Assembly (NCBI GenBank): GCA_965213585.1
Contig: CBDBZP010000005.1
Location: forward strand, 1,329,376 to 1,393,375
Source: Acidimicrobiales bacterium
GTDB lineage: Bacteria; Actinomycetota; Acidimicrobiia; Acidimicrobiales; Poriferisodalaceae
DNA length: 64,000 nt
Reading direction: 5' to 3'
Shown: in pieces, positions 1 through 24,718 of the stretch
How the letters are laid out: every line of letters starts with the position of its first letter
Numbering within the stretch: the stretch's first letter is position 1
The notes under the pieces: model-generated
Seen by the model: the letters and a program-made list of their open reading frames with translations, nothing else
Database searches by the model: none
Told to the model about the DNA's origin: nothing
Position numbers and translations under genes: made by a program

Positions 1-621
1 CCAGTCGCCGTCGAGCGGGCCGGGTCGCTCCCCCGCCGCAGCGCGCAGAAGTTCGACGGTGTCGGCGTCGAAGCAGGCCTCACCGTCGATCAGCTCGAAG
101 CCGACCTCCTCGGTGGCCAGACGGGTCGGGCACCCGGGCAGGGAACCGAGCTGGAACCGGCCGCCCGTCGCAGCGCCAACCGCGTCGGCCAGCACGGCAG
201 CGTCGAGCCCGGCCGCAGCGGCGGCGTCGGCCACGGCCCACACCTGGGCGCCCTGGTCGTTCCATCGGGTCCACGATCCGACTCGTAACTCTGACCGGCC
301 CGCCGAGCCGCGAGCGGCCACCAACCGCTGCCCGGTGGCCGGATCCCGGCCCGACAGAAGCGCCTCCAACGCCTGCGGGTCCACCGTTCCGGCCAAGCCC
401 AGCCGGGTGGCCCCCTCGCCCAGCCACCGGCCCGGGCCCTCCACCGAGTCGGCGTAGTACACGCCCACCCCTGACCGGCCGTCGCCCGGAGCCCGGGCGT
501 CGGGTCGGGCCGTCGGGTCCGGTCGGGCGCCCTCGTGGAGGTAGCGGACCAGTCCCGCCGCCACCCCCGCCGCGGTTGTCGCACCGGCCGAGGTGCCCAG
601 CGGGGTCACCCGGATCAGCAC
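1..621 (-). CDS. MobF/TrwC-family conjugative relaxase, N-terminal part (gene continues beyond the left edge; start GTG at 621 or 630)
   Basis: Own minus-strand translation; absent from the ORF track because there is no stop in the window. It reads VLIRVTPLGTSAG...GVGVYYADSVEGPGRWLGEGATRLGLAGTVDPQALEALLSGRDPATGQRL. The PGRW-G-GA--LGL pattern is typical of TrwC-type N-termini and recurs in the fragment at 62440-62712. Confidence 0.7.
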   Translation of the reverse strand, partial: MLIRVTPLGTSAGATTAAGVAAGLVRYLHEGARPDPTARPDARAPGDGRSGVGVYYADSVEGPGRWLGEGATRLGLAGTVDPQALEALLSGRDPATGQRLVAARGSAGRSELRVGSWTRWNDQGAQVWAVADAAAAAGLDAAVLADAVGAATGGRFQLGSLPGCPTRLATEEVGFELIDGEACFDADTVELLRAAAGERPGPLDGDW

Positions 622-693
622 GCCGACCACTTCACCGGCCCGAGCCCATGGCTGCGCCGACCGGGCGCAGCCCCCGGAGGGGCCGCAGGCTCC

Positions 694-720
694 TGCAGGT
701 GCCGCTGAGCGGCACCTGCA
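694..720. promoter_or_regulatory. Perfect 12-bp-stem inverted repeat (tgcaggtgccgc-tga-gcggcacctgca) upstream of the relaxase gene; candidate oriT hairpin or operator
   Basis: Read directly from the DNA. It lies 70-100 bp 5' of the relaxase start, in a divergent intergenic region. Confidence 0.35.
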
Positions 721-790
721 AGTGTGTGTGTCATGGATACTTGTCGTAGTTGAGATGCCCTCGTCCCTTCGGCCTTGCTCGCAGCGTGGG

Positions 791-811
791 CCTCAATTGA
801 GGACTTGAGGT
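791..811. promoter_or_regulatory. Perfect palindrome CCTCAATTGAGG followed by a TTGAGGT half-site
   Basis: Same motif family as the cluster at 2061-2751. Sits in the relaxase/990-1826 intergenic region. Confidence 0.45.
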
Positions 812-989
812 CGGCACCGACACTGAGCCGATGCATCCCGGTGGGCCGGCCCTGGGCCGGCCCACCGGTCGACAGGACCGGCGTCTGCCTGGCGGGCCGT
901 CCGGCGCGACGACAGGCTGCGGGCAAGCGCCGCCTCGGTGCGCTCGCCGCTGCGGGCGACGGCGGGCATGTGGGTGTTCGCCAGGGCGG

Positions 990-1826
990 TCACAGCCGGC
1001 GTCCGCATGCGGGCCGGGCCTCCGTCGTCGGGCGGGGCGCCGGTCGGGTGGGGACGGTGAGGCGGGCGTGGGTGACCTGGACCAGTTCCGACAGGGCGAC
1101 CACGGCGCCCGGAGCGGCTGCGGGGACCGTCATCGACACGGCCACCTCGACGCTCCGGCCGTCGGGACGCCGTAGGGCGACCAGGCCGGCTTCGCTCAAC
1201 CGGCCCAGCGACCGGTCCAGCCCGGCCGGGCGACTCCCCGCCGCTGCGGCCACCTCGCCGGCGGCGACGGCGTCGAGGCCGTCGGCGACAGCGCGGGCCA
1301 GGTGCCGGTAGACGGCGACGTCGCGGGGCAGGACCACCCCGGCGCCGATCACGTCGAGCACGTAGGCGTCGGACCAGACGAACCGCAGGGCCCGGTCACG
1401 GCCGACCAGGTGCAGCAACGGGCCCGGGGGCGGGCCGGTGCCCGACAGCGGCCCGCCGGCTCCCAGCCGGCGCACCAGGGCCGGCAGGCCCGCCATCTGG
1501 GCGGGGGTGAGGTCCGGTACCGACATGGCCACCTCGGCCCGCACGGCGGCGTCAGGGCGGCCTGGCGGGCCGATACGGACCAGCCCGGCCTGTTCGGTGC
1601 GGCGGAGCAGGCGGCCCAGCTCGTCCTGGTCGACGCACACCGCCCGGGCCAGCGACCCCACCGTGATGACCCCCAGGTCTTGTTCGGCGGCCCGGGCCAG
1701 CTGCCGGTACAGGCGCACACCGGCCGGGCCCAGCGCCGTGGCCGACATCACGTCGGCGACGTAGGCGTCTGACCATGCGTGACGGCCCCGCCTTCGGTGT
1801 ACAGCTGCGACCTCGATCATTGCCAT
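990..1826 (-). CDS. Hypothetical protein built from two tandem homologous modules (possibly winged-helix-like DNA binding)
   Basis: ORF 990..1955. ATG at 1826 (MAMIEVAAV) is the likely start. Two internal repeats each contain WSDAYV-DV ... VYR-LARA ... LGRL-EAGLV-- ... P. Confidence 0.6.
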   Translation of the reverse strand: MAMIEVAAVHRRRGRHAWSDAYVADVMSATALGPAGVRLYRQLARAAEQDLGVITVGSLARAVCVDQDELGRLLRRTEQAGLVRIGPPGRPDAAVRAEVAMSVPDLTPAQMAGLPALVRRLGAGGPLSGTGPPPGPLLHLVGRDRALRFVWSDAYVLDVIGAGVVLPRDVAVYRHLARAVADGLDAVAAGEVAAAAGSRPAGLDRSLGRLSEAGLVALRRPDGRSVEVAVSMTVPAAAPGAVVALSELVQVTHARLTVPTRPAPRPTTEARPACGRRL

Positions 1827-2060
1827 GACCCCCCGAGAGGCCGGGCCGCCGCCCCCCGTTGCGCCCCTCCAACCGCCGCACCCCCCCCGGCTGCCCCCGG
1901 GTGCGGCGGTGGCCACGATTCCACCCCCGCCCGCCCGGCGCTGCGGCAACGACACCGGGCCCCTGGGGCGGGCTCGCCGTCAGGGCGGCGGCCACCCGGC
2001 CCGAGTTGCCGCCCGGTCCGCCGATCTCGCTGCCGTCCGCTCGGACGGGCTGGTTCTTGA

Positions 2061-2751
2061 CCTCAGTTGAGGTGGCCGGCGGCCTCAGTTGAGGTGACCG
2101 GCGGCGGGTTGAGGTCCCGGCCGTCCTGCCCCGAGGCTGCAGTCGACGCCCGCCGTCCCCTCGAGGTCGGCGGGCACCTCAATTGAGGCGCTGAGGACGG
2201 TCGAGGCGCTGGTCAGCGGCCTCGCCGGGTCGTGACCGGTCCGGACTGGGGGTGCCGGTTGAGGTGCGACTTGAGGTCTCAGTTGAGGTCCCCGTCGGCA
2301 GGTTGAGGTCCCCTCCTGCGGGACCCGCCGGGCGTCGATCAGCGGCCTGGCCGGAGGGTCCAACCCAGGCCGGTGCCCGCCCACGGCGACCGCGCGGCGG
2401 TGCCGGCGGGGTCCTGGCCGGCGACCTCAATCGGGGAAATCTTCCCGGTTGAGGTGTCGGCGTAGCTGCCGCTGAGGTCCGGTGACAGGTGGGTGTGGTT
2501 CTGGTGCTCTCCCCAACCCAGGAGGAGATCACCGTGGCCCACACCTACCAATCAGCGACCGGGGTCCCATGGGCGCGCTACCAGCCCCTGGCCGACGTGA
2601 GGACGGTCGAGGCGCTGGTCAGCGGCCTCGCCTCGTGACCGGCCTGGGGGTGCCGGAGGGACCAGGTTGAGGTCCCCTCCCGCCCCCGTCGGCGGTGCCG
2701 GCCGGGGTCCTGGCCGGCGACCTCAATCGGGGAAATCTTCCCGGTTGAGGT
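2061..2751. repeat. Iteron field: at least 12 TTGAGGT half-sites, several forming CCTCA(A/G)TTGAGG palindromes
   Basis: TTGAGGT at 2067, 2089, 2109, 2259, 2271, 2283, 2303, 2449, 2667 and 2745. Variants at 2183 (TTGAGGC) and 2472 (CTGAGGT). Palindromes at 2061-2072, 2083-2094 and 2177-2188. Confidence 0.85.
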
Positions 2752-2895
2752 GTCGGCGTAGCTGCCGCTGAGGTCCGGTGACAGGTGGGTGTGGTTCTGG
2801 TGCTCTCCCCAACCCAGGAGGAGATCACCGTGGCCCACACCTACCAATCAGCGACCGGGGTCCCATGGGCGCGCTACCAGCCCCTGGCCGACGTG
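2193..2895. repeat. Tandem duplication: unit 2193-2599 (about 407 bp) repeated as 2600-2895 (about 296 bp, with an internal deletion)
   Basis: Near-identical blocks 2396-2599 and 2691-2895. gaggacggtcgaggcgctggtcagcggcctcgcc occurs at 2193 and again at 2600. Confidence 0.85.
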
Positions 2896-3630
2896 CTCGA
2901 CGGCCAGTGGGAACACACCATCGCCGGCCGCCGTCGGCGCATCGACCGACGCTGGGCCCAGGCCCACCCCCGACTGGACGTCGCAAGCGCCGTCGACCGC
3001 TCCCACCCCGACGCCGACGAGCTCCTCGACGTGCTGCTCGGTCTGGCCGCCGCCGGCGACCCCGCTGCGGGCCCGGCCATCCTCAAGCGGCACTGCCCCG
3101 CCCTCGTGGCCGTGGCCCGGTCCCTGGACCTGCACCGCTCGTCGGGCCCCAACCGGCCCGGACCCGACGAGATCCTCGTGGCCGACGCCGCCGGGATCGC
3201 CTGGATGGCGTTGGCCACCATCGTCCGTCTCCGACCCCGCCGTCCCGGCGTGCGGCTGCTCTACGAGTTCCGTCGCCAGCTCCTGACCGCCATCCTGGGC
3301 CGCCGCTCAGACACCGTCACCCCCGTCGTAATACCTGTGCTCGCCGGTGACGGTGTCGCCCACAGCCTCGACCGGGCCGCCGCCGAGGGCCGCATCGCCC
3401 CGACCGAGGACACCGCCGTCGCCAACGTGCTCTGCGACCAGATCCTGGCCGCGCTGAGCACCCCCGCGGTCGCCGCTGTCATGGCCGCCGCCCAGGGCCA
3501 CCTCTGCACCCGAGACGCGACAGCATCGGCCACAGCGAAGCGGTCCCGCCTCCACCGGGCCCGCCGCCAGGCCCGCGCCGGCCTCGGTGACGCCATCAAC
3601 GTCGCTCGCTCGACCGAGCAGGCGGCGTGA
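2830..3630 (+). CDS. Hypothetical protein (possible regulator); start GTG 2830 behind an AGGAGG site
   Basis: ORF 2785..3630. caggaggagatcaccGTG gives a good RBS. The sequence is helical and Arg-rich at the C-terminus. No motif recognised with confidence. Confidence 0.6.
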   Translation: MAHTYQSATGVPWARYQPLADVLDGQWEHTIAGRRRRIDRRWAQAHPRLDVASAVDRSHPDADELLDVLLGLAAAGDPAAGPAILKRHCPALVAVARSLDLHRSSGPNRPGPDEILVADAAGIAWMALATIVRLRPRRPGVRLLYEFRRQLLTAILGRRSDTVTPVVIPVLAGDGVAHSLDRAAAEGRIAPTEDTAVANVLCDQILAALSTPAVAAVMAAAQGHLCTRDATASATAKRSRLHRARRQARAGLGDAINVARSTEQAA

Positions 3631-3859
3631 GCGGGTCGCCGTTCAGCACTACCTTGACACGGCCGCTGCGCCCGGTCGGCCATACAACCGGCGCCGAGCG
3701 CGGAACCGTCGAGCCCGCTGGTCTGCCCCGGCTCGGAGGCTGGCAGCCGCAGCCGGCACTGCCGGGCCGAGACCCTCGCCTGGGCTCTCGCGGCGGCCGG
3801 CGTGGCATCGTCGCTCCGTGAGCGATGTCAACTCGGGGACGGGTGACAGCTTCGACCCG

Positions 3860-4360
3860 ATGCCGATCCTGCGGGTCCTCGACGATCACGGCGTGGACTA
3901 CATCGTCATCGGTGGCGTCGCGGCCCGGGCCCACGGTGCCCGCCGGATCACCTTCGACCTTGACGTGGTCACCGAACGGAGCCGACAGAACCTGCAGCGC
4001 CTCGCCACCGCCCTCATCGAGCTCGGTGCTCGCCTGCGGGTCGCGAACCTGGCCGAGGACCTCGACCTGCCCCATCTCAACGCCGACCTGCTCGCCGGGT
4101 GGCGCAACGTGACCTGGTCCACCCGCTACGGGCCCTTCGACGTCCTCGGCGACGTCCCCGGCCCCGGCCGCCAGCGCTACGACTACGACCGCCTCTCGAC
4201 CAACGCCGTCCGCACCATCCACACCGACCCCGACGGTCGCCTGGCGGTGTGGGTGGCCGGCCTCGATGACCTCGTTGACTCCAAGAGAACCGTCGGCCGC
4301 CCCAAGGATCTCGAGGCGCTCAGCGAACTCGAACAGCTCAGGCGCCGGCGCCGGCGCTGA
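3860..4360 (+). CDS. Minimal nucleotidyltransferase-fold protein (MNT-like)
   Basis: MPILRVLDDHGVDYIVIGGVAARAHGARRITFDLDVV matches the hG[GS]x9-13DhD minimal NTase pattern. In-frame ATG at 3860 of ORF 3587..4360. Confidence 0.65.
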   Translation: MPILRVLDDHGVDYIVIGGVAARAHGARRITFDLDVVTERSRQNLQRLATALIELGARLRVANLAEDLDLPHLNADLLAGWRNVTWSTRYGPFDVLGDVPGPGRQRYDYDRLSTNAVRTIHTDPDGRLAVWVAGLDDLVDSKRTVGRPKDLEALSELEQLRRRRRR

Positions 4361-4387
4361 CGAGCCGGCCCGACCAGGCCGTTGTGG

Positions 4388-4597
4388 CTAGCGGGCCCGC
4401 CTGGTGGGCGGGGCGGCCGCTTCGTGGCTGAGCCGGGCCTCGGCCCTGGCCACGTGACGGTCGATCGCAGCCTGGGCCTTCTCGACGGTGTCGAGCCGTT
4501 CGCCGCGCTCGTCGATGCTCACATCGTCAGAGGTGGGAGGGCCGGCGCCGTCGAGCAGCGTCGCCCAGTCGACGATGAGATCAGGCTCGTCCGCCAT
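4388..4597 (-). CDS. Small acidic hypothetical protein (69 aa)
   Basis: ORF track only. Convergent with the NTase gene. No recognisable motif. Confidence 0.3.
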   Translation of the reverse strand: MADEPDLIVDWATLLDGAGPPTSDDVSIDERGERLDTVEKAQAAIDRHVARAEARLSHEAAAPPTRRAR

Positions 4598-4746
4598 CGG
4601 CCCATCCTACCGGCCGGGTTCCGAGCTCGACCTAGGTGTGCAGTGCGGGAGGTTGTCCCGGGCGGTCGCAGTGAGGGCGCGACGGGGGTGGACCAGCCGA
4701 GGGCGCCGTGGGCTCGGTGGTGATTGTAGCTATGCGGGTGATTCCG

Positions 4747-5393
4747 TCAACCCCTGTGGGGGAAGACATCGCCGCAGCGCACCGTCAGCACCATGGCGAA
4801 AGCGGATGCGCAGCTGCAGATCTCGTCGGCACGCGCCGGTGAGGCGGTGTCCTTGCTGACGGTGTAGCCGGGCGCACCGTCTGGGAGGAGCACGGCGCTG
4901 TTGTGTGCGCTTCGGCGGTCTCCATGGACCACGCTGTTGAAGTCGTCGAGGAGGTCCTTCAAGCCGGCGGTGACGATCGCGGGGGGGACGTTGTCGCGCC
5001 CGCCGATAGTCCGTAGACGGGTTTGGAGGCTTGGCCGTGACGAGTGAGGCCAGCCGCTCTGCCAGCTGGTGATGGCTTCGTCGTGGTCGATCAGGTAGGT
5101 GAACGTGCTGACGCGTTCGATGAGCGGGCGGAGCAGGATCCGAGCGGCCAACAGGTAAGCCTGCCGAATGAGCTCTCGCACGCTGAAGGCGACCGAGCAT
5201 GCGCCCGGCACGATCTCACTGGCGGCCTGTTGGATGGGTGTGAGGTCGTTGCTTCGAGTCCAGGGGCCGATGCGGTGTTGCTCGGCAGCCAGGGTGCGAA
5301 GGACCTGGTCGAAGAAGAGCAGGCTGGGGCGGCCAGGTAGGGCTCATTGTCCGGAGTGAAGATCGTGGGCGGCCCGGAGGCGTCGGCGGTCAC
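4747..5393 (-). pseudogene. Frameshifted hypothetical gene coupled to the recombinase remnant
   Basis: GTG at 5393 overlaps the upstream stop (GTGA). The frame MTADASGPPTIFTPDNEPY is lost near 5335 and continues in the frame of ORF 4747..5211 (LPGRPSLLFFDQVLRTLAAEQHRIGPW...SVRELIRQAYLLAAR...). Confidence 0.5.
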
Positions 5394-5881
5394 GAGGCCT
5401 CCTGGTCGTCGAGACGGTCCAGGAGTCCATCGAAGATCTTCTGTCGGCCGATCTTGCCCTTGTCGGCGGCGTCGTCGCGTTCGCGCTGGACGGTGGGTCG
5501 GAACTCGACGGTGGTGACGAAGAACGTGCAGGTCTCACAGATCGACTCGAAGTGGCAGTCCATCTCGACTGATCGTGCGCAATAGCCGTTACCCAGCATG
5601 CGGCGATGCATCTCGCCGCGGAGTTTGCGCATCTCGGTGCCCTCGTCGTCGGCGTCGACCTGGCGGGGCTGGTCATAGAGGGCTTCGACCTTCTCGGTCA
5701 CGGCGAAGTACTCCTCGGCGACCTTTAGGTCGAACGCCGTGGCCAGCACCCTGTTCCGCCGTGCCCGGGCAGTCACCAGCTCGACGTAGGCGTCGAGCAG
5801 CGGATGGTCGAGTGTGATCACGTCGCCGGCCTCACCTCCAGCGGGTCGAACGAGGCACGGCATGAACGCCACCTCACCCAC
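5390..5881 (-). pseudogene. Tyrosine recombinase/integrase remnant with a large internal deletion
   Basis: An N-terminal piece (LDAYVELVTARARRNRVLATAFDLKV) is joined directly to the characteristic C-terminal tail (MLGNGYCARSVEMDCHFESICETCTFFVTTVEFRPTVQRERDDAADKGKIGRQKIFDGLL). The catalytic core is absent. GC is visibly lower here. Confidence 0.55.
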
Positions 5882-5998
5882 GGTTCCAACCCGCCCGAAC
5901 CCAGTGGTGGATCACCCCGGTGGGGGCAGCCCGGTAGCATCTTGGGTGTGGGCAGTGCCGACCCGTTCTCGCGCCGTCGTGGCATCCGGAGCGCTGTC

Positions 5999-6184
5999 GT
6001 GGCCGCCGAGGTCGGCTCTGGTCGCCTCGAGAGAGCGGAGCCCGACGACGACGTGGTCGCCCTCGCCGATGCGTTGATGTCGGGCGAGTTGAGCGTGGCG
6101 GAGTTCGAGGCCGCGGTCGACGCCCACCAGGACGCCGTGGTCGCCGAGTCCCGGCTGCGGGAGTTCGTCCCCCGGAGCGGGTGA
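5999..6184 (+). CDS. Putative small antitoxin partner of Fic (start uncertain)
   Basis: The short ORF end overlaps the fic start (GTGA at 6181-6184). The position matches VbhA-type antitoxins, but I could not see a clean inhibitory S/TxxxE(G/N) motif. Confidence 0.4.
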   Translation: MAAEVGSGRLERAEPDDDVVALADALMSGELSVAEFEAAVDAHQDAVVAESRLREFVPRSG

Positions 6185-6831
6185 GCTTCGATCCGTATCT
6201 GCGGCCCTCTGGGGTGCTGCGCAACACTTTGGGGCTCGATGACGCCGTGGCCCTCACCCGGCTCGAGGCCAACGCCGTCCTGCGGGGCTGCGTCGTCATG
6301 TTCCGCCGGCCCGATGTCGTCGCAGCGTCATGGGATCTCGGCCATCTGCAGCGGCTCCACCGGTTGCTGTTCGGGTCGATCTACCCGTGGGCCGGGGAGC
6401 TTCGCACGATCGACATCGCCAAGGGCACGACACGGTTCGCCAACGCCGGGTACCTCCAGACGGCTGCGGCCGACACCTTTGGTCGCCTCCTCGATCCCCG
6501 AGCCCGCTTCCAGGGCCTCGACCGGGACGACACGGTGTTGGCTGCGTCGGCGTTGTTGGCGGAGCTGAACCTCCTGCACCCGTTCCGTGAAGGCAACGGT
6601 CGGGCGCAGCGGGCGTTCCTGCAGCTTCTCGTCCTCGAGACCGGTTCGGTGATCAGGTGGGACCGCGCGACCCCGGAGGAGAACGTGGCCGCGTCGATCC
6701 GGTCGGTGAGCGACGACGACGCGTTCGTCGACATCCTCGACCGCATCCTCGAACCGGCCGACGCCATCTCCCTCCCTCCCGTGAACCCTCGCAAAGGGCG
6801 GGGTGTCGACCCGGCGGGTCCCTCCCGGTAG
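6181..6831 (+). CDS. Fic family protein (AMPylase-type toxin)
   Basis: Canonical Fic motif HPFREGNGRAQR (HxFx[D/E]GNGRxxR) in ORF 6181..6831. Confidence 0.9.
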   Translation: MSFDPYLRPSGVLRNTLGLDDAVALTRLEANAVLRGCVVMFRRPDVVAASWDLGHLQRLHRLLFGSIYPWAGELRTIDIAKGTTRFANAGYLQTAAADTFGRLLDPRARFQGLDRDDTVLAASALLAELNLLHPFREGNGRAQRAFLQLLVLETGSVIRWDRATPEENVAASIRSVSDDDAFVDILDRILEPADAISLPPVNPRKGRGVDPAGPSR

Positions 6832-8644: not shown

Positions 8645-9442
8645 ATGACCGCCACCCAGACCCGAACCGACCCCCCCGCCGGTGGGCAGCCGCGACCGGC
8701 TGGTCTGCCGCTGAGCGGGCGGGTCAGGCCCCGGCGTCTGCCGTGGGCGGTGCTGGGGGTGATGGTGGTGGCCGGCGCGGGGCTGGCCTTCGCCATGTGG
8801 GCCGGCGCGCTGGGTGACCGGGTCCAGGTCCTGGCCGCTGCCGGTGACCTCGAGCCCGGCGAGGTCCTCGACCGGGGGGACCTGCGGGTGGTGGAGCTGG
8901 CCGGCGGCGACGGGGCCGCGGTCGTGGCGGCCGCCGACGCTGACCGTCTGGTGGGTCTGACCGTCCTGGGTCCGGTCCCGGCCGGGGCGCTGCTGGCGGG
9001 GGCCATGTTCGATGACCGTGACCCGCTCGGGCCCGGGGAGGTGATCGCCGGCGCCGTCCTGGCGCCCGGCCAGTACCCCGACGCGGGACTGCGACCGGGG
9101 GAGGTGGCGGTGCTGGTCCGTCCCGAGGTCACCGGCGCCGCCGGTCAGGCCCGGGCGGGCCGCCCGCTGGGGGTGGCCACGGTGTGGTCGGTTGACCCGC
9201 TGGCCCAGGCCGAGTCGCTGCTGGTCGGGTTCCGGGTCGACGCCGGCGTGGCCATGGCGGTGGGCGCCGCCGCCGCCGACGGGGAGCTGCGGATGCTGTC
9301 CGCTGACCCGGCCGGCGTCGACGCCCTGCTGGCCGACCTCGAGGCCGCCCACGCCGTCACCTTCGAGGTGGCCGCCTCCGAGGCGGCCGCCGCCACCGAC
9401 GCCGGCCCGGAGCAGGCCGCCGGGGCCGGGGTGGGGGAGTAG
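8645..9442 (+). CDS. cpaB: Flp pilus assembly protein CpaB/RcpC-like
   Basis: An N-terminal TM segment is followed by a SAF-like region (GEVLDRGDLRVVEL...). Its position immediately upstream of the cpaE/cpaF homologues fits. Confidence 0.7.
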   Translation: MTATQTRTDPPAGGQPRPAGLPLSGRVRPRRLPWAVLGVMVVAGAGLAFAMWAGALGDRVQVLAAAGDLEPGEVLDRGDLRVVELAGGDGAAVVAAADADRLVGLTVLGPVPAGALLAGAMFDDRDPLGPGEVIAGAVLAPGQYPDAGLRPGEVAVLVRPEVTGAAGQARAGRPLGVATVWSVDPLAQAESLLVGFRVDAGVAMAVGAAAADGELRMLSADPAGVDALLADLEAAHAVTFEVAASEAAAATDAGPEQAAGAGVGE

Positions 9443-9444
9443 CG

Positions 9445-10215
9445 GTGTTGTCGGTGGCGGTGTGCTCGCTGCGGGGGGCGCCGGGGGCGTCCACCGTGGC
9501 GGCCGGGCTGGCGGCGGCGTGGCCGGTGACCGACGCCGGTCGGGTGGTCCTGGTCGAGGCCGACCCGGCCGGTGGGGTGCTGGCTGCCCGGTGGGCGCTG
9601 AGCGAGAACCCCGGTCTGTTGGACCTGGCCGCCCGGAACCGGGCGGGGGACCTCGCCGCGGTGGAGGCGGCCGCGCAGGCCTGGACCGACACGGCCGGGG
9701 TGGTGGTGGCCCCCACCGACCCTGACGCCGTGGCCGGGTTGTTGGCGTCGGCGTCGGGGCAGGTGGTCGACACCCTGGCCGGTCTGGGGGTGCCGGTGGT
9801 GGTCGACGTCGGGCGTCTATCGAGGAAGTCGATGGCGCTGCCGCTGGCGGTACGGGCGGCCCGCGCCGTGGTGGTGTGCCCGAGACGCCTCGACGCGGCG
9901 GCGGGGATGGCGCCCTGGGCGGCCCGTCTGGTCGACACCGGCGCCCGCCCCGTGCTCGTCGCCGTCGGCGACGGCCCCTACTCCCCGGCCGAGGTGGCCG
10001 CCTCGGCCGGCCTCGAGCTGGCCGGGGTGCTGCCTTCGGACCGGCGGGGGGCCGCCGCGCTGTGGGCCGGGGACCGGCGCCGGCTGCGGCGCTCGGTGCT
10101 GTGGCGGGCGCTGCGCCAGCTCGCCGCCGACCTCGCCGCCGCCACCACTACCGCCGTTTCGGTCGTACCGGAGCCGGTGCGGCTGGTGTCACCAACCGAA
10201 GGAGACTCACCATGA
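9445..10215 (+). CDS. ParA/MinD-like ATPase of the TadZ/CpaE type (degenerate P-loop)
   Basis: VAVCSLRGAPGASTVAAGLAAAW...VVLVEADPAGG. The gene order also matches Tad loci. Confidence 0.6.
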   Translation: MLSVAVCSLRGAPGASTVAAGLAAAWPVTDAGRVVLVEADPAGGVLAARWALSENPGLLDLAARNRAGDLAAVEAAAQAWTDTAGVVVAPTDPDAVAGLLASASGQVVDTLAGLGVPVVVDVGRLSRKSMALPLAVRAARAVVVCPRRLDAAAGMAPWAARLVDTGARPVLVAVGDGPYSPAEVAASAGLELAGVLPSDRRGAAALWAGDRRRLRRSVLWRALRQLAADLAAATTTAVSVVPEPVRLVSPTEGDSP

Positions 10216-11546
10216 CCACCACCGCCGTCGATCAGCGGGAGCGGGCCTGGCTGGTGGGACGCCTGGCCGGTGACGTGCAGGCCGCGGTCGTCGACGGGTT
10301 GGGTCAGGCGGCCGAGTCCGCAGCCGACGATGACGCCGCCCGTGTGCGGGCCGTTGACGCCGCCCACGCCGCGCTGGCCGACATCAACCGGGCCCGCCTG
10401 GCCGCCGGGGAGGTGCCCCTCGACCACGACGTCGAGATCGACGTGATCGACACGGTGCTCGACAACTTGTACGGCACCGGGATCTTCGCCCCCTACCTGC
10501 GCGGCGAGGACCTCGAGGACTTCGTGGCCAACGGACCCGGCCGCGTGTTCGTCCGCCGGGCCGGCGGCGACGGCTGGGAACCGGCCCCACCCCTCGGCGT
10601 CGACGAGGCGGGCCTGATCGAACAGGTGAGGGCCCTGGCCGCCCGGGCCCGCACCGAGCGACGCTTCGACGCCGCCAGTCCCATCGTCGACCTCCGCCTC
10701 CCCGACGGGTCCCGCCTCAACGCCGTCATGGACGTCACCGCCACGGTCACGGTGTCGATCCGCCGCCACCGCCACCTCGACATCACCCTCGACGACCTCG
10801 TCGCCCTAGGCACGCTCGACAAGGCCCTGCACGGCTTCCTGGCCGCGGCGGTGGCCGCCGAGCTGAACATCGTCGTCACCGGCGACCAGGCGTCGGGCAA
10901 GACGACCCTGACGCGGGCCCTGCTGGGCGAGGTCGGCCCCCGGGTGCGTCTGGCCACCATCGAGGACCGCCTCGAGCTGCAGCTGTCCGCCAACCCGGAC
11001 CGGTTCCCCAACGTCGTCGAGTCAGAGACCCGCCTGGCCAACGCCGAGGGTCAGGGGGAGGTGACCATGCGGACCCTGGTCCGGGCCGCCCTCACCCAGG
11101 CCACCGACCGGGTCGTCGTCGGGGAGGTCCGCGGTGACGAGATCATCGACATGCTCGACGCCATGAGCCTGGGGGCCAGGGGGTCCCTGTGCACCCTGCA
11201 CACCCTGGGGTCGGCTGAGGCCATCAACCGGATCTGCACCCTGTGCGCCCGGGCCCCCGAACGCCTCCCCCGAGACGTCGCCCAGCAGCTCATCCGCGAC
11301 GCAGTGCAGCTCATCGTGCACCTCGAACAGCTCCCCAACGGGCGCCGGGTGGTGCACTCGGTCCGGGAGGTCACCACCTACCGGGACTCCGACGGGCTGC
11401 AGACCAACGAGATCTTCGCCCCCGACCACCACGGCCGGGCCTGCCCCGCCCACCCCCCCGAGGCCCGCACCATGGCCCGCCTCGTCGCCGTCGGCTTCGA
11501 CGACACCGTCCTGTTCCAGCCGGCCGGGTTCTGGGACCAGCCGTGA
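10212..11546 (+). CDS. cpaF: CpaF/TadA secretion ATPase
   Basis: ATG 10212 overlaps the upstream stop. Walker A VVTGDQASGKTTL. The segment RVVVGEVRGDEIIDMLDAM...GSLCTLH is typical of VirB11/CpaF ATPases. Confidence 0.9.
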   Translation: MTTTAVDQRERAWLVGRLAGDVQAAVVDGLGQAAESAADDDAARVRAVDAAHAALADINRARLAAGEVPLDHDVEIDVIDTVLDNLYGTGIFAPYLRGEDLEDFVANGPGRVFVRRAGGDGWEPAPPLGVDEAGLIEQVRALAARARTERRFDAASPIVDLRLPDGSRLNAVMDVTATVTVSIRRHRHLDITLDDLVALGTLDKALHGFLAAAVAAELNIVVTGDQASGKTTLTRALLGEVGPRVRLATIEDRLELQLSANPDRFPNVVESETRLANAEGQGEVTMRTLVRAALTQATDRVVVGEVRGDEIIDMLDAMSLGARGSLCTLHTLGSAEAINRICTLCARAPERLPRDVAQQLIRDAVQLIVHLEQLPNGRRVVHSVREVTTYRDSDGLQTNEIFAPDHHGRACPAHPPEARTMARLVAVGFDDTVLFQPAGFWDQP

Positions 11547-11574
11547 CCCCCCACGCCGTCGACGGGGCCCGCTG

Positions 11575-12432
11575 ATGGTGCCGCTGATCGGGGCGCTGTT
11601 CGGTGCCACCATCGGGCTCGGGGTGCTGATCGTCGTGGGGGCGGTCACGGGCCGCTTCGACCGCACCGCCCTCACCGCCGGTGGGCGCCTGGGCCGCCTG
11701 GTCGGCGCCGAACGGCCCCTGCTGTGGGCCGCCGTGTGGGTGACCGTGTTCGTGGTCGTCTGGGCGGCCACCGGGTGGGTGGCGGGCGGGCTGATCGCCG
11801 TGATCGTGGCCCGGGTCGTGCCCCGCATCGTGGCCACCCGCCGCCGGCGGGCCGCGCAGGTAGCCCGCATCGAGGCGATCGCGTCGTGGTGTGAGATGCT
11901 GCGCGACACCATCTCGGCCGCCTCGGGCCTGCACGAGGCCATCCGGGTCACCGCCCGGGTCGCCCCCGAACCGGTCGCCGGGCCCGTCGGCCGTCTGGCT
12001 GCCCGCCTGCACCACGTCCCCCTGGAACGGGCCCTGCGGTCCTTCGCCGACGAGGTCGACCACCCCATTGGTGACCTGGTGGTGGCCAGCCTCCTGCTCG
12101 CCGCCGGCGGCCAGGGCGGCTCCATGGCGGGCCAGCTCACCGAACTGGCCGGCACCGCCCGCGCCAACGCCACCATGCGCCTCCGGGTCGAGGCCTCCCG
12201 GGCCCGGGTCTACACCGGAGCGTCGACGGTGGGCGGGGTGTTCGCCGTGTTCGCGGTCGGGCTGGTGGTGCTGAACCGCTCCTACCTGGCGCCCTTCGAC
12301 GACGCCGCCGGTCAGCTGGTCCTGCTCGTCATCGCCGCCATGATCCTGGGGGGCTGGGCTGCGATGTACCGGCTGGGGGACTTCACCGAGATGCCCCGGG
12401 TCCTGCACCGCCCCGACGGCGGGCCCCGGTGA
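11575..12432 (+). CDS. tadB: TadB-like type II secretion F-family membrane protein
   Basis: Polytopic membrane protein directly after cpaF. Confidence 0.8.
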   Translation: MVPLIGALFGATIGLGVLIVVGAVTGRFDRTALTAGGRLGRLVGAERPLLWAAVWVTVFVVVWAATGWVAGGLIAVIVARVVPRIVATRRRRAAQVARIEAIASWCEMLRDTISAASGLHEAIRVTARVAPEPVAGPVGRLAARLHHVPLERALRSFADEVDHPIGDLVVASLLLAAGGQGGSMAGQLTELAGTARANATMRLRVEASRARVYTGASTVGGVFAVFAVGLVVLNRSYLAPFDDAAGQLVLLVIAAMILGGWAAMYRLGDFTEMPRVLHRPDGGPR

Positions 12433-12463
12433 CCGGCCCGGCGGCCTCGAACCGGGACCGGTC

Positions 12464-13336
12464 GTGCTGACCGGCCTGGGGTTGGGGGCGCTCACCGGCC
12501 TGGGGGTGTGGCTGGTGGGCCGGGGTCTGACCCCGGCCCGGCGGCCGCTGGCGACCGACCTGGCCGCCCTGGCCGCCCCCGCCGGGCTGGCGGCGGGGCC
12601 GCCCGCCCGGCGACGGGACCGGTCGGTGGCGGCGCTGGTGGGCCGGGCCGGGGTGGACTTCTCGCACCTGGCCGCCGACCTGGCCGTGTGCGGGCGCACC
12701 GTCGAACGTCACGCCACCGAACGGCTCGGCTTCGCCGTGTTCTTCGCGGCCCTGCCCGCCGTCGCCTGGGCCGCCGCCGGGGCGGTGGGGGTGTGGCTGT
12801 CACCGGCGCTGGTGGCCGTGGTGGCGGCCGCCGTGGGGGCGGCCGGGTGGGCGTTCCCGGCCATCGAGCTGCGGTCCCGGGCCCGGGCCCGGCGCCGGGA
12901 GTTCGCCTCCGCCCTGGGCGTGTACCTGGATCTGGTGGCCATCAGCCTGGCCGGCGGAGCGGGCGTGCAGACCGCCCTACGCCGTGCCGCCGAGGTGGCC
13001 GACGGGTGGTCCTTCGCCGAGATCCGCCACACCCTGGCCGTGGCCCGCCTCACCCGTACCTCCCCCTGGGACGCCCTGGGGGCCATGGCCCGGCGCTTCG
13101 CGCTCCCCGAGCTGTTGGAGCTGACCTCCAGCCTGGCGCTGGCCGGCACCTCCGGTTCCCGGGTCCGCGACTCCCTGGTGGCCAAGGCCCAGAGCTTCCG
13201 GGCCCATGACCTCGCCGAGACCGAACGGAAGGCCCAGGCGGCCTCCGAGAAGATGTCAGCACCGGTCGTGCTGATGCTCACCGGCCTGCTCCTGCTCATC
13301 GGCTACCCGGCCGTGCGGGCGCTCATGTCGGTGTGA
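12464..13336 (+). CDS. tadC: TadC-like type II secretion F-family membrane protein
   Basis: Second F-family paralogue. GTG start at 12464. Confidence 0.8.
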   Translation: MLTGLGLGALTGLGVWLVGRGLTPARRPLATDLAALAAPAGLAAGPPARRRDRSVAALVGRAGVDFSHLAADLAVCGRTVERHATERLGFAVFFAALPAVAWAAAGAVGVWLSPALVAVVAAAVGAAGWAFPAIELRSRARARRREFASALGVYLDLVAISLAGGAGVQTALRRAAEVADGWSFAEIRHTLAVARLTRTSPWDALGAMARRFALPELLELTSSLALAGTSGSRVRDSLVAKAQSFRAHDLAETERKAQAASEKMSAPVVLMLTGLLLLIGYPAVRALMSV

Positions 13337-13369
13337 CACCCACCAACCCGCCCAGAAAGGGCCACGCCC

Positions 13370-13570
13370 ATGACCATTACCCGACTGACCGCCACCCTGG
13401 CCGCCGCTGCGGCCGTCATCTCGGCCCGAGCGGCCGACGCCCGCGCCGACGACCGGGGTGGGATCACCCCCCAGACCGTCGTCGTGGCCGTCTTCGCCGC
13501 CCTGGCCATCACCGTCGGGGCGATCATCACCGCCGTGGTGGTCGCCAAGGCCAACAGCATCAGCCTCTGA
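13370..13570 (+). CDS. Small Flp/DUF4244-like putative pilin (66 aa)
   Basis: Leader ...ADARADDRGG, then the hydrophobic helix ITPQTVVVAVFAALAITVGAIITAVVV. It sits where actinobacterial Tad loci carry the pilin. The usual EY after the cleavage Gly is missing. Confidence 0.5.
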   Translation: MTITRLTATLAAAAAVISARAADARADDRGGITPQTVVVAVFAALAITVGAIITAVVVAKANSISL

Positions 13571-13596
13571 GCTGCCGCCCCCAGGACCCATCCCCG

Positions 13597-14091
13597 GTGA
13601 CCGCCACGAGCAGGCCCGGGTCCGCCCCCCACCACTTCGGTGTCGGGGGCGGGCCCGGACCCGGCCAGCACCCGTCAAGGCCGCCCGCTGCCCGGTCACG
13701 GATCGGCGCGCTGCGGGCCCGGGCCGCCGCCGACGACTGCGGTCTGGTCTCGGTCGTGCTGCTCGTCCCGCTGGTGGTGCTCATGGTGCTCCTCCCGGCC
13801 CAGCTGGCCATGGTCTGGCACGCCAACAACGTCGTCGAAGCGGCCGCCGTGGACGGCCTGCGGGCCGCCCAGGGCGGCGGGGACGGCCCCGCCACCGCCG
13901 CCGGGATCATCGGCGGCGCCAACCGGGGCGGCCTCCTCGACGACGTGCACATCGCCGTCGACGCCGGCCCGGTGACCGTCACCGCCACCGTGTCGGGCGC
14001 CGTGGCGTCCATTCTGCCCGTGGGCGGGTGGCGGGTCACCGCCACCGCCTCGGGACCGGTCGAACGGTTCATCGGCGAGGCCAACCGATGA
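13597..14091 (+). CDS. TadE-like pseudopilin (start uncertain; first in-frame GTG used)
   Basis: Frame of ORF 13333..14091: DDCGLVSVVLLVPLVVLMVLLPAQLAMVWHANNVVEAAAVDGLRAA. Confidence 0.55.
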   Translation: MTATSRPGSAPHHFGVGGGPGPGQHPSRPPAARSRIGALRARAAADDCGLVSVVLLVPLVVLMVLLPAQLAMVWHANNVVEAAAVDGLRAAQGGGDGPATAAGIIGGANRGGLLDDVHIAVDAGPVTVTATVSGAVASILPVGGWRVTATASGPVERFIGEANR

Positions 14092-14528
14092 CCCCCGCCG
14101 GCGGCCGCACAGACCGGTGGGTGCGGGCTCGCAGCGAGGACCGGGGGACCATGACCGTCGAGGTGGCGGTGCTGGCGCTGCCGCTGATGCTGGTGGCCGG
14201 GTTCGTGGTCCTGGTCGGCCGTCTCGGCGGCGCCGACGCCGATGTCGGTCAGGCCGCCCGTGACGCAGCCCGGGCCGGGAGCCTCTACCTGCCCGACCGG
14301 GCCCGCCCCGAAGCGGTCGCCGCCGCCCGGTCAGCGCTCGACGCCTCCGGTACCGCCTGCGTGGACCTGACCGTGGCGGTGACCACCAGCGGCCGGCCCG
14401 GGGATCTGGCCACCGCCACCGTCACCTGCGTGGTGCGGGTCAGCGAGTTCCCCCTCCTCGGCCCCGTCGCCAAGACCGTGACCGCGACGGCCGCTCACCC
14501 CATCGACTCGTGGCGGGCCGACCCGTGA
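14088..14528 (+). CDS. TadE-like pseudopilin
   Basis: ATGA overlap with the upstream gene. EDRGTMTVEVAVLALPLMLVAGFVVLVGRL...AARDAARAGS. Confidence 0.65.
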   Translation: MTPAGGRTDRWVRARSEDRGTMTVEVAVLALPLMLVAGFVVLVGRLGGADADVGQAARDAARAGSLYLPDRARPEAVAAARSALDASGTACVDLTVAVTTSGRPGDLATATVTCVVRVSEFPLLGPVAKTVTATAAHPIDSWRADP

Positions 14529-19170: not shown

Positions 19171-21621
19171 ATGGGCGCCCCGAGCAACGATGCCACCGAC
19201 ACGACCGCCGTGCTGGCCGCCGCCGTCGCCGCCGCCGGCGGGGTGTCGGCCGGGGTGGTGTGGGCGGCGGCGCAGCTGACCCAGCGGGCGGCGACAGGGC
19301 GGTGGGCGCCGATTGATCTGGCCGGCACCGTCGCAGCACTACCGCGGCTTCCTTCCACGGCCGCCCGCCCGGCTGGGGCATGGGAGCACACCGCTGGCCT
19401 GGTTCTGCCGCCCGGGTTGTTCTGGGTCGCTGTCGTCGTGGTCGCCGCCCCCGCCGTGGCCACGGCCGTCGCGATCGCACGCCGGGCGAGCCGGTGGGGG
19501 GCCGGCTCGGTGCCCCGTCGGCGTCTCGGCGTCGACGCCAACCCGTGGCTGGCCAGCTCCGCCCAGCTCGCTGCGCTGACCACCACCCGCTCGGGGGCGG
19601 CGGGCCGGTTCATCCTGGCCCGCCACGGCCGCCGTCTGCTGGCCACGCCCACCGGGCGGGCCTCGGCGCGGGACCGGGCCCGGCGCCGGCCCCCCGGCGG
19701 GCGGGGGGCTGTGGCCATCATCGGCCCCTCCCAGTCCGGCAAGACCACCACGGTCATCGCCGGGCTCCTGGACTGGGACGGGCCGGTGGTGTGCTCGTCG
19801 GTCAAGACCGACCTCATCGGCCCCACCATCGGCTGGCGGTCCACCCTCGGGCCCGTCGCCGTGTTCGATCCCGCCAACGCCACCCCCAATGACACCTGCG
19901 CCTGGTCGCCGCTGCGCACCGCCTCCGACTTCGTCGGCGCCGTCGAGGCCGCCCGGCGCATCTCCGAGGCCACCCCCCGCAACTCGGGGTCCGTCACCAA
20001 CGAGTCCTTCTGGGACAACCTGGCCCAGCAGCTCCTCGGTACCTGCCTGTGGGCCGCCGCCCGAGGCGGGCGGACCATGGGCGACGTGGTCGCCTGGGTG
20101 GCCACCCACGACGGTGTGGACCCCGAACGCTCCGATCTGTTGGGCCTCCTCGCTCGTTTGGCCCCGCCCGGGCACCCCGGGCCCCTCGCCCCCCGCCCCG
20201 CCGCCATGCCCGAGGACCCCGATGCCCGGGCGGCGTGGGAGGACTACGACCAGGCCCTCCAGCCCCTGGCCGGGATCCGGGCCGCCCCACCCGACACCCG
20301 CTCCAGCGTCTACATCACCGCCCAGACGCTGCTGTGGCCCTGGTCCCAGCGCACCGGCGCCGCCTCCGCGCAGGGCCGCAGCGTCGACCTGGGCTGGCTC
20401 TACGCCGACCCCGACACCGGCCGGCCACGCCCTGCCAGCCTGTACCTGTCGGCCCCTCTGGGCGCCCAGGCCCGCTACGCGCCCGTCATCGGCGGACTCC
20501 TCGGTGACCTCATCGACCAGGTCTTCGCCCACCACGCCCGCACCGGCGAACGCCTCGACCCGCCCCTGCTGGTCGTCATCGACGAGGCGGGCCAGACCCC
20601 CCTCGAGCAGCTCCCCCAGATCGCCGCCACCGTCGCCGGTCTGGGTGTGCAGCTCGTCACCGTCTGGCAGTCCAAGGCCCAGCTCGACACCGTCTACGGC
20701 ACCGGCGCCGACACCGTGTTGACGAACCACCCCACCAAGCTGTTCTTCTCGGGGCTGTCCGACTCCGCCACCCTCGCCTACCTGCGGGACCTCACCGGCG
20801 TCGAGCACGTCCCCACCCGCAGCCTCACCCGCCCGGCCGGGCTGCTCGCCACGGGCGGACGTTCGGAGAACGCCACCACCCACGAGCTGTCTCTCCTTCC
20901 CGCCCACGTCATCCGCCAACAGGCCCGCGGTCACGCCCTGCTCGTGCACGCCAACCTGGCCCCCGCCGCCGTCGCCGGCCGTCACGCCCCCAGCGACCGC
21001 CACCTCCGCCGACGGGCCCGCACCCCCCTGCCCGCCGGCACCCCCACCATCGGCCCCACCGCACCAGCCGACCCTCCGGCCGGGCCGGGCGACCGGTCCG
21101 TGACCCATCACCCCGACGGGCGGCCGGCCCCACCCGGCGTCGACCCCGCCACCGGTGAGATCCTCGAACCCAGCCCACCCCCAGCACGCGCTGCCGGTGC
21201 TGACGGCGGGGCCGGGAGCTACGTCTACCCGCCCGGCGTGACCGTCTTCTCCCACCCGCCGGCCGGCCCCGACGGCGACCAGGACGACCCCGACCCGTGG
21301 TCCGCCGACGTGGTCGACCCCGTCCTCGACGACCCCACCCTGGCCGGCACCCAGCTCAGCTTCGACCTCGACCTCGACCTCGACCCCGACCCGCCCGGAC
21401 CCGACGGCCCGGCCGGCGACGGGTCCGCAGCCGCCGGCGACAGCGGGGACGGTCCCGCTGACCTTTACCTCGACCTCGACGGTTGGGGCCCGGTCGAGGA
21501 CCTCGACCTCGACGGCTACGGGCCCGCCGACGGCGCCGACCCCTGGCCCCCGACGACGGCACCGGCGGCGACGGTGACAGCGCTGGGCGACCGTCACTGC
21601 CCGGAGCAGGGCCCACGGTGA
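19171..21621 (+). CDS. Type IV coupling protein (VirD4/TraG family) with a long acidic Pro/Asp-rich tail
   Basis: Walker A AIIGPSQSGKTTT. Walker B PLLVVIDEAGQ. The stretch GVQLVTVWQSKAQLDTVYG is also typical. Confidence 0.85.
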   Translation: MGAPSNDATDTTAVLAAAVAAAGGVSAGVVWAAAQLTQRAATGRWAPIDLAGTVAALPRLPSTAARPAGAWEHTAGLVLPPGLFWVAVVVVAAPAVATAVAIARRASRWGAGSVPRRRLGVDANPWLASSAQLAALTTTRSGAAGRFILARHGRRLLATPTGRASARDRARRRPPGGRGAVAIIGPSQSGKTTTVIAGLLDWDGPVVCSSVKTDLIGPTIGWRSTLGPVAVFDPANATPNDTCAWSPLRTASDFVGAVEAARRISEATPRNSGSVTNESFWDNLAQQLLGTCLWAAARGGRTMGDVVAWVATHDGVDPERSDLLGLLARLAPPGHPGPLAPRPAAMPEDPDARAAWEDYDQALQPLAGIRAAPPDTRSSVYITAQTLLWPWSQRTGAASAQGRSVDLGWLYADPDTGRPRPASLYLSAPLGAQARYAPVIGGLLGDLIDQVFAHHARTGERLDPPLLVVIDEAGQTPLEQLPQIAATVAGLGVQLVTVWQSKAQLDTVYGTGADTVLTNHPTKLFFSGLSDSATLAYLRDLTGVEHVPTRSLTRPAGLLATGGRSENATTHELSLLPAHVIRQQARGHALLVHANLAPAAVAGRHAPSDRHLRRRARTPLPAGTPTIGPTAPADPPAGPGDRSVTHHPDGRPAPPGVDPATGEILEPSPPPARAAGADGGAGSYVYPPGVTVFSHPPAGPDGDQDDPDPWSADVVDPVLDDPTLAGTQLSFDLDLDLDPDPPGPDGPAGDGSAAAGDSGDGPADLYLDLDGWGPVEDLDLDGYGPADGADPWPPTTAPAATVTALGDRHCPEQGPR

Positions 21622-24439: not shown

Positions 24440-24718
24440 CGTCAAGATGGCTTTGGCTCGGCGCTGTTCGGCGTTCTCCCGCTTCAACCGCTTGACCCCG
24501 GCCGCCTCGGCGCCGGTCACCCCCGGCCGACGGCCGGCGTCGGTCTCGCCTGACGAACGCACTTCCGCACCGTCTCAGCCGTCGGGCCCAGCTTCTCGGC
24601 CACCGCACAGATCGTCTCCCGCTGCGAACTGTGCTCGTGCTCATGGTCGAGCACCATCCGCACCGCCCGCTCCCGGCATCTCCACCGGGTACCGACCCGG
24701 CGTGCGCTGGTGTGTCAT
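24440..24718 (-). pseudogene. IS3-family transposase OrfA remnant (at least 2 frameshifts, no OrfB)
   Basis: Own translation across frames: ...RERAVRMVLDHEHEHSSQRETICAVAEKLGPTAETVRKCVRQAE/TDAGRRPGVTGAEAAGVKRLKRENAEQRRAKAIL. Confidence 0.7.

Follow-up and report, generated by a model that had tools for sequence, protein, structure and literature searches.

Putative TTGAGGT half-site arrays in the control regions of a relaxase-containing element of an Acidimicrobiales bacterium

The TTGAGGT field and its conservation

The window analyzed here is a 64-kb stretch (64,000 nucleotides) of a contig from an Acidimicrobiales bacterium, and near its left edge the heptamer TTGAGGT accumulates in the control regions of a relaxase-containing, apparently conjugative element. 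Most copies are located between two divergently oriented genes, one of which encodes a putative winged-helix protein, and a smaller cluster adjoins a candidate origin of transfer (oriT) next to the relaxase gene. The framing genes and the oriT candidate are the following.

1–633, minus strand: 5' part of a TrwC/MobF-family relaxase gene (PF08751, E = 1e-11), which extends past the window edge
694–749, plus strand: oriT candidate, a perfect inverted repeat with 13-nt arms (694–720; dG -16.5, z -5.0) followed by GTGTGTGTGTCATGGATACTTGTCGTAG
990–1826, minus strand: winged-helix gene (278 aa), upstream of and co-directional with the relaxase gene
2830–3630, plus strand: divergent rightward gene encoding a 266-aa orphan, with a GTG start after AGGAGGA

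Exact TTGAGGT occurs 17 times on the two strands of the window, whereas dinucleotide-preserving shuffles contain 1.93 on average and never more than 6. Thirteen copies lie within 2067–2751 (2067, 2089, 2109, 2176(-), 2259, 2271, 2283, 2303, 2424(-), 2449, 2667, 2720(-) and 2745, where (-) denotes the minus strand) and one further copy is at 805; the segment 750–2751 holds 14 of the 17 together with every palindromic version. The remaining 61 kb contains just three copies (37735, 39174 and 44864), each within an open reading frame (ORF) and at approximately chance level, and the density in the control region near the relaxase gene is about 140 times that elsewhere. The 12-mer CCTCARTTGAGG, with up to two mismatches, is found at seven sites in the window, every one of them inside 791–2732. 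No heptamer cluster or palindrome was detected in the window ahead of the Tad and type IV secretion system (T4SS) genes or of any other operon. The dense TTGAGGT field reported in the initial annotation is therefore borne out, and its copies are arranged in a small number of clusters.

750–811: relaxase-side cluster, with TTGAGAT at 750–756, palindrome CCTCAATTGAGG at 791–802 and TTGAGGT at 805–811
2060–2115: cluster A, a tandem pair of 22-bp units that both contain CCTCAG·TTGAGGT as an abutting inverted pair (2061–2073 and 2083–2095), then a lone TTGAGGT at 2109–2115
2176–2197: cluster B, composite ACCTCAATTGAGGcgCTGAGGA, a perfect palindrome with a half-site offset by 8 bp
2259–2309, plus strand: cluster C, four direct TTGAGGT copies (2259, 2271, 2283 and 2303) spaced by 12, 12 and 20 bp, conserved in a related contig
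2424–2478: cluster D, inverted repeat ACCTCAATCGGG-N8-CCCGGTTGAGGT with 12-bp arms (z = -3.8), and CTGAGGT at 2472–2478
Degenerate half-sites: CTGAGGT at 2060(-), 2472 and 2768; CTGAGGC at 2082(-); TTGAGGC at 2183; CTGAGGA at 2191
2598–2895, plus strand: partial tandem duplication, a shortened second copy of 2192–2597

Cluster A is the one closest to the winged-helix gene, and its palindromes have the form CCTCAGTTGAGG (2061–2072 and 2083–2094). The other palindrome, CCTCAATTGAGG, is found at 2177–2188 as well as in the relaxase-side cluster, and the palindrome-plus-half-site architecture of cluster B recurs at 790–811 (family D6); the field thus shares this composite with a site 40 bp away from the oriT-like motif. 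The third TTGAGGT of cluster C belongs to TCTCAGTTGAGGT. The palindromes, including the one at 791–811 with its following half-site, are as previously described, and the tandem spacings quoted earlier were correct both for cluster C and for 2067, 2089 and 2109 (22 and 20 bp).

With degenerate copies included, about 20 recognizable half-sites are present in 2060–2774. Their flanks are nearly uninformative (approximately 0–0.7 bits per position) except for R at -2, G at -1 and S at +1, and because the flanks carry almost no information, the unit is best described as RG-TTGAGGT-S, of about 9 bp, and not as an iteron of 17–22 bp. Heptamer orientation is mixed and spacing is irregular (0–146 bp), the conserved unit appearing as abutting inverted pairs, as direct repeats 12–22 bp apart and as an inverted repeat with 12-bp arms. 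The GC content of the field between the divergent genes ranges from 63 to 85% in 60-nt windows, the whole 64-kb window being about 74% GC.

Part of the array is of recent origin. The 296-bp partial tandem duplication is evident from two identical pairs of segments: 2407–2599 matches 2703–2895 at 100% (193 nt, D1), and 2192–2226 matches 2598–2632 at 100% (35 nt, D5). Along with the heptamers at 2667, 2720(-) and 2745 and the CTGAGGT at 2768, the duplicated DNA includes the beginning of gene 2830–3630 and its ribosome-binding site; positions 2534–2599 are a copy of the first 22 codons of this gene, and the first copy is now a truncated 34-codon ORF (2534–2638). In place of the triple heptamer and a stretch of about 70 nt, the second copy has 'agggacc', and it is therefore not a simple stutter. 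An alignment with the related contig shows one copy, the duplication being absent there, and the ancestral state is therefore taken to be the single copy. Relative to the ancestral start codon at 2534, the 32-bp inverted repeat of cluster D (2424–2455) lies 79–110 bp upstream, its last exact TTGAGGT (2449–2455) ending 79 bp before that codon. The earlier count of at least 12 copies in about 700 bp of non-coding DNA consequently holds for the number (13) and only in part for the non-coding character, given the gene-start copy; moreover, three of the 13 copies (2667, 2720 and 2745) stem from the duplication and are not independent sites. After its removal, the non-redundant tally is 10 exact heptamers in 389 bp (2067–2455). 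Outside the gene-copy part, the field has no codon-position GC pattern, and its insertions and deletions relative to the related contig are not multiples of three.

The related locus (L001) is an 18-kb metagenome contig from the European Nucleotide Archive (ENA) that is 84–91% identical in DNA and 86–89% identical in the two neighboring proteins. It carries nine heptamers, compared with 0.6 expected, in the same two intergenic regions. Positions belonging to the heptamers of the window are identical in the relative at 64 of 70 sites (91%), compared with 244 of 336 (73%) in the rest of the field (Fisher p = 6e-4), and cluster D together with the presumed promoter region is nearly invariant. In the older internal duplications D2 and D6 the heptamers are still perfect, and the spacers have drifted to about 77% identity. 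Sites are also gained and lost: the copy at 2067 has decayed in the relative, and TTGAGAT at 750–756 of the window is a perfect TTGAGGT there. Taken together, these comparisons indicate selection on the heptamer word itself.

A scan of the genome_contigs collection with CCTCAATTGAGGNNYTGAGG returned 29 matches, approximately the chance level (about 35, estimated from the collection size), and none had a TTGAGGT cluster like that of the window or of L001; the source genome was not among these matches. When the metagenome_contigs collection was searched with the triple 12-bp tandem pattern, L001 and L002 were the only matching loci with blastn similarity to the first 9 kb of the window; the pattern was ill suited to this purpose, and microsatellites of the (GGTTGA)n type accounted for the high-GC loci that were inspected. 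Searches of plasmids with the field or with the oriT-like region by blastn gave short, chance-level matches only, and no RNA family of Rfam was detected in 1–6000.

Neighboring genes, candidate oriT and the surrounding element

The product of 990–1826 contains a pair of homologous modules that share 40% identity over 89 residues (E = 3e-10) and are joined by a Pro/Gly-rich linker. In its AF2 model (mean pLDDT 58; module cores 70–82; linker and C-terminal tail below 50), which is of moderate confidence, both modules are predicted to follow the H-H-b-H-H-b-b order of the winged helix. Foldseek matched them to MarR/ArsR chains (ArsR, MarR, NolR and Rv0880) with probability 0.9–1.0 over about 100 columns and E = 6e-3 to 0.1. 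The profile searches point the same way below threshold: Pfam PF12802 MarR_2 (22.2 bits against a cutoff of 27, E = 1.6e-4), NCBIfam NF033788 ArsR (15 bits against a cutoff of 55), MarR/ArsR chains in the PDB (E = 0.05–1) and phage 'transcriptional repressor' families in PHROGs, below the family thresholds. At full length, fold matches were obtained to the Geobacillus DnaB primosome protein (E = 7e-4, TM 0.32) and, weakly, to RepA_N (4pql and 5kbj), and in a viral library to several phage proteins annotated as replication initiators (E = 0.01–0.06); these initiator matches mainly reflect how often tandem winged helices occur in initiators. StbA, ParB, ParR and TubR were not among the top 50 fold matches.

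Both neighboring proteins are orphans. No match to either was found by tblastn in 72,556 plasmids, and in a word-indexed search of 5.8 billion proteins the sole matches came from the source genome and one ENA contig. Exhaustive searching of 1.84 billion representatives with phmmer contributed a single further relative of the winged-helix protein, the 149-aa single-module protein P0005 encoded on a 519-bp contig; neither a profile built from the five modules nor the viral contig collection yielded further relatives. The family is extremely rare, with three members among about 15 billion proteins. The single-module P0005 fits an ancestral homodimer binding palindromes.

Gene callers disagree on the start of the winged-helix gene (252, 278 or 321 aa). 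A GTG start at 1955 was rejected in favor of ATG-1826, the extension having no codon GC pattern and about 12 of its 43 codons differing in the related contig. The leader upstream of the gene (1827–1960) is very C-rich on the plus strand (80–87% GC) and contains an 11-nt inverted repeat, CCGCCGCACCC...GGGTGCGGCGG (approximately 1873–1909).

The divergent gene 2830–3630 is a conserved partner of the winged-helix gene. Its true start is taken to be the GTG codon, which follows AGGAGGA; in the related contig the homologue begins at the corresponding position with ATG. An all-helical product is predicted; the AF2 model of this protein is unreliable (pLDDT 42) and too poor for a fold search, and no match was found in Pfam, NCBIfam, PHROGs or the PDB, nor was a DNA-binding domain detected. 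By eye, the protein faintly resembles an extracytoplasmic function (ECF) sigma factor, with a C-terminal AKRSRLHRARRQAR similar to region 4.2 and an N-terminal DELLDVLLGLAAAGDPAA similar to region 2, and BLASTP places ...AKRSRLHRARR... opposite the region 4.2 helix of RpoE at E = 0.13. This assignment was rejected, since Pfam, NCBIfam, phmmer searches of the PDB with either half and the BLASTP comparison with RpoE do not support it. In the 2.4 kb from 600 to 3000, no TANNNT -10 element was found on either strand, and a scan with the sigma-70 consensus was equally negative. At least three promoters must be contained in this segment, and they must follow another rule.

Between the winged-helix and relaxase genes, the segment 694–749 has the lowest GC content of the region (52–58%). 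Its perfect inverted repeat is followed by the motifs GTGTGTGTGTC/ATGG and TACTTGTCGTAG, and the repeat and downstream motif are almost invariant in the related contig. The only plasmid relative of the relaxase N-terminus is found on an Iamia sp. plasmid (Acidimicrobiia; 49% identity), which makes an Acidimicrobiia-like actinomycete the probable host of the element, and on this plasmid an inverted repeat followed by AATGTGTGCCTGTCGTATC also lies ahead of the relaxase gene (NZ_CP050949, L153 5800–5860). A perfect inverted repeat and then TGTGTG...YTGTCGTA lie ahead of each of the two MobF relaxase genes, a combination that resembles IR2-TATTGTCT/ATAG of R388 and represents a candidate conserved oriT signature of Acidimicrobiia MobF elements. 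The oriT core of plasmid R388, which includes nic (IR2, then TATTGTCT/ATAG), is matched at 100% in R388 and in other conjugative plasmids, and in R388 it sits upstream of trwA on the strand opposite the trw genes, the same relative orientation as that of the window candidate. The segment 694–749 is thus a reasonable, if predicted, oriT candidate, and it is abutted by the heptamer cluster at 750–811. A 135-aa gene upstream of the Iamia plasmid relaxase was considered as a homologue of the winged-helix module and rejected (hhalign probability 3%). A second inverted repeat lies in the same interval.

838–868, minus strand: perfect inverted repeat with 15-nt arms (dG -21.9 kcal/mol, z -6.3), conserved in the related contig

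This repeat is situated 120 nt beyond the stop of the winged-helix gene and has no U-tract; it resembles a terminator or attenuator and may separate the winged-helix and relaxase genes.

To the right of the locus lie a Tad-type pilus set (8645–14528: a SAF/CpaB-like protein, a CpaF ATPase, two TadB/C and two TadE-like proteins), a VirD4-type coupling protein (19171–21621) and a prepilin peptidase (40764–41213), as well as a D12 methyltransferase, an SCO6880-family protein, a VirB4-like ATPase and a Toprim primase. The position of the Tad genes amid the relaxase, VirD4, VirB4-like and SCO6880 region suggests a Tad-like pilus tied to conjugation. Judged by its predicted gene content, the element is a relaxase/T4SS-type conjugative element on a 3.6-Mb contig. 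Its earlier designation as an integrative and conjugative element (ICE) is plausible in view of the T4SS, coupling protein and relaxase genes on a contig of this size, although the window yielded neither an integrase nor an att site. A tRNA-Pro gene (TGG; 59700–59776) could mark an integration site.

The accessory genes include a DUF6036 nucleotidyltransferase (3824–4360) and a Fic/DOC protein (6181–6831), which look like cargo, and an AbiEii-like nucleotidyltransferase (47347–48078), all of them toxin/antitoxin-like. The related contig lacks the 3.8–5.9 kb segment between the homologue of gene 2830–3630 and the Fic gene. An anti-phage 6A-MBL system (24631–29402) is made up of two proteins, the first of the MBL fold (NCBIfam NF058524, E = 2e-79) and the next a 1136-aa E2-ThiF (E1)-JAB-patatin fusion, in a stretch with a GC content of about 66–70%, below that of its surroundings. 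A Mutator-family transposase (44864–46252) and an IS110-family transposase (61190–62419) are also present.

Possible functions of the array

The heptamers are confined to the intergenic regions next to a putative regulator gene and are conserved in the related contig, as is expected of an operator array. We consider it on balance probable that they serve as half-sites for an element-encoded, sequence-specific DNA-binding protein, and we infer that this protein is most likely the product of 990–1826, which would use the array both as an operator and as a platform for a relaxosome accessory function. Each winged-helix module would read one RG-TTGAGGT-S half-site, and the flexible Pro/Gly linker would allow a single chain to span half-sites that are abutting and inverted (CCTCAR·TTGAGG), directly repeated at 12–22 bp or more distant. 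On the field of about 400 bp between the divergent genes, a cooperative multi-protein complex could assemble that autoregulates the winged-helix/relaxase transcription unit and, as we infer, represses gene 2830–3630. At the 750–811 cluster, the same protein may modulate relaxase expression, nicking or both, similar to a relaxosome accessory factor. Any such control would be local, acting on the divergent promoters and at the relaxase gene and oriT, because no heptamer cluster is present elsewhere in the 61 kb.

The initial annotation had proposed a nucleoprotein platform serving as a replication origin, a partition centromere or a master operator of the ICE, with either neighboring protein as the binder. 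The general idea of a platform for an element protein agrees with the enrichment, the conservation of the heptamers and the adjacent tandem winged-helix protein. Of its specific versions, the master operator is too broad: local control is supported, and element-wide control is contradicted by the lack of sites before the Tad and T4SS genes. As a binder, the two-module protein is reasonable, whereas no DNA-binding domain was detected in the 2830–3630 product.

Several observations weigh against this operator reading. More than 10 sites exceed the needs of a simple repressor. All similarities of the winged-helix protein to DNA-binding families are below curated thresholds, and its model is only moderately confident; the predicted recognition helices of its modules are unlike each other (QDELGRLLRR and PAGLDRSLGR), and therefore both modules may not read the same heptamer. 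The binder could instead be the 2830–3630 product or a protein encoded outside the window. The conservation test is a single pairwise alignment, since only one relative was found, and no promoter was located to support an overlap of operator and promoter.

The number of sites is more readily accommodated by an alternative to which we assign a low probability and which is compatible with an operator role, namely, a StbA-like or centromere-like maintenance site. Here the protein would coat or bridge the arrays and thereby position or segregate the element in its excised or plasmid form, with no dedicated NTPase, and would also balance vertical stability against conjugation, as StbA of R388 does on stbS. 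At least two sets of short repeat arrays lie in a divergent region by the transfer operon and oriT, as in R388, the candidate binder is a helix-turn-helix (HTH)/winged-helix protein, and TubR/tubC provides another example of an array bound by a winged-helix protein. However, no ParA, ParM, TubZ or StbB-like ATPase was found beside the array (flanking genes and the next genes up to 8 kb), which also speaks against the classical partition centromere suggested initially. For the candidate binder, no sequence or fold match to StbA was found, and the irregular heptamers of mixed orientation differ from the regular direct repeats of stbDR, parC and tubC.

A different binder is similarly doubtful: the 2830–3630 product, an excisionase or recombination directionality factor, or a host protein, with the array serving as promoter elements or arm-type sites. 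The conservation of gene 2830–3630 as divergent partner is in line with this, and the lack of a canonical -10 element would fit a dedicated sigma factor. Yet the 2830–3630 product has no family match and only a low-confidence model (pLDDT 42), heptamers in both orientations and abutting palindromes are unlike promoter elements, and no integrase or element end is nearby.

We assign a comparably low probability to a further reading, namely, that the two clusters and the covalently duplicated protein constitute an undescribed, NTPase-independent control device of an Acidimicrobiia-type conjugative element. The protein may bridge the 400-bp field to the oriT-proximal sites 1.3 kb away and so link relaxosome assembly to the maintenance or replication of the element once it is excised; such a device may act in a StbA-like or initiator-like manner while being built from an unrelated orphan family.

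Less likely still is an iteron-type theta origin, in which the winged-helix protein would be a Rep initiator whose monomers open the origin at direct repeats and whose dimers repress the rep promoter on inverted repeats. The same half-site occurs in direct and inverted form in the pPS10 and F-type origins as well, the tandem winged-helix architecture is typical of initiators, weak DnaB and RepA_N fold matches were obtained, and two near-identical 22-bp tandem units are present at 2061–2104. Nevertheless, a replication origin is poorly supported. There are only two such units, the conserved unit being 7–9 bp and not 17–22 bp, with irregular orientation and spacing; neither neighbor matches a Rep family in Pfam, NCBIfam or PHROGs; the TM-scores are about 0.3, and most fold matches are plain transcription regulators. 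The DnaA box TTGTCCACA (up to one mismatch) is absent from the whole window, and the field, at 63–85% GC, has no AT-rich unwinding stretch. T4SS-type elements, moreover, usually replicate from oriT by means of the relaxase.

Finally, a functionless array whose heptamer density is a by-product of segmental duplications is highly improbable: part of the array does derive from duplication (the 296-bp copy and the older D2 and D6), but 10 copies are non-redundant, the heptamers remain perfect amid diverged duplicated spacers and are better preserved in the related contig, and independent copies lie 1.3 kb away at the oriT candidate.

Comparison with known systems

The closest analogue in layout is the trwA-oriT-stbS-stbA region of R388, and the closest in fold are the MarR/ArsR repressors. 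In R388 (IncW), two sets of five 9-bp stbDR repeats beside oriT are bound by the HTH protein StbA, which acts as a repressor and as a switch between conjugation and maintenance (bioRxiv 10.1101/2022.04.29.490116); the layout was checked in NC_028464. Both loci have a MobF/TrwC relaxase operon in one direction and a divergent gene in the other, an oriT-type inverted repeat with a TGTC motif, about ten short repeats in transfer-operon control regions and a small HTH-type protein without an NTPase partner, its function being cited for StbA and predicted here. They differ in that the stbDR repeats are regular 9-bp direct repeats with 2-bp spacers, whereas the units described here are 7–9 bp in both orientations; no sequence or fold similarity to StbA or TrwA was found for the winged-helix protein; and the oriT candidate lies between the winged-helix and relaxase genes and not in the divergent region.

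With MarR/ArsR repressors, the locus shares the module fold and palindromic sites of 12–14 bp between divergent genes, one of which encodes the regulator. In contrast to the homodimers of these families, with their dimerization helix bundle, the window protein would carry two modules per chain as a covalent pseudo-dimer; the matches are sub-threshold, the sites are many more and include direct repeats, and no ligand-binding logic is evident.

The relaxosome accessory proteins (TrwA with sbaA/B in R388; TraM with sbmA-C and TraY in F) are likewise encoded just upstream of, and co-directional with, the relaxase gene. Such systems have repeated sites by the nic-region hairpin and in the protein's own promoter region, as here. 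However, TrwA, TraM and TraY are of the ribbon-helix-helix or TraM fold and not winged-helix proteins, and most sites here are 1.3–1.7 kb from the oriT candidate.

Among actinobacterial systems, the clt locus of Streptomyces contains direct repeats of 7–8 bp that are bound by TraB/TraA through a winged-helix-type domain, with formation of a higher-order complex (PMC4447253; PMC3583192). In both cases, short repeats cluster at a locus that acts in cis in the transfer of a conjugative element from actinobacteria, but clt belongs to FtsK-like double-stranded DNA transfer without a relaxase, whereas the element described here has a TrwC relaxase, a VirD4-type coupling protein and a VirB4-like/SCO6880-family T4SS. 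The iteron origins with WH1-WH2 Rep proteins (pPS10 RepA, F RepE and R6K pi) resemble the locus in combining a two-winged-helix protein with adjacent direct and inverted repeats, and differ from it in Rep homology, in the length and regularity of the unit and in having an AT-rich region and DnaA boxes.

Almost nothing is known about the regulation of relaxase/T4SS-type conjugative elements in high-GC Actinomycetota, and the locus offers a compact, testable cis/trans pair combining an orphan double winged-helix protein with a 7–9 bp word and a candidate oriT. If the operator reading is true, it would identify where a rare element family has its control region and oriT, and would reveal how a single-chain pseudo-dimer reads half-sites in several geometries. 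Overall, the locus is a new example of a familiar class, the binding-site arrays in control regions of conjugative elements, and as such is not conceptually surprising; what sets it apart from the known systems is its candidate binder, a single-chain, two-module protein that fits no named family and belongs to a very rare element.

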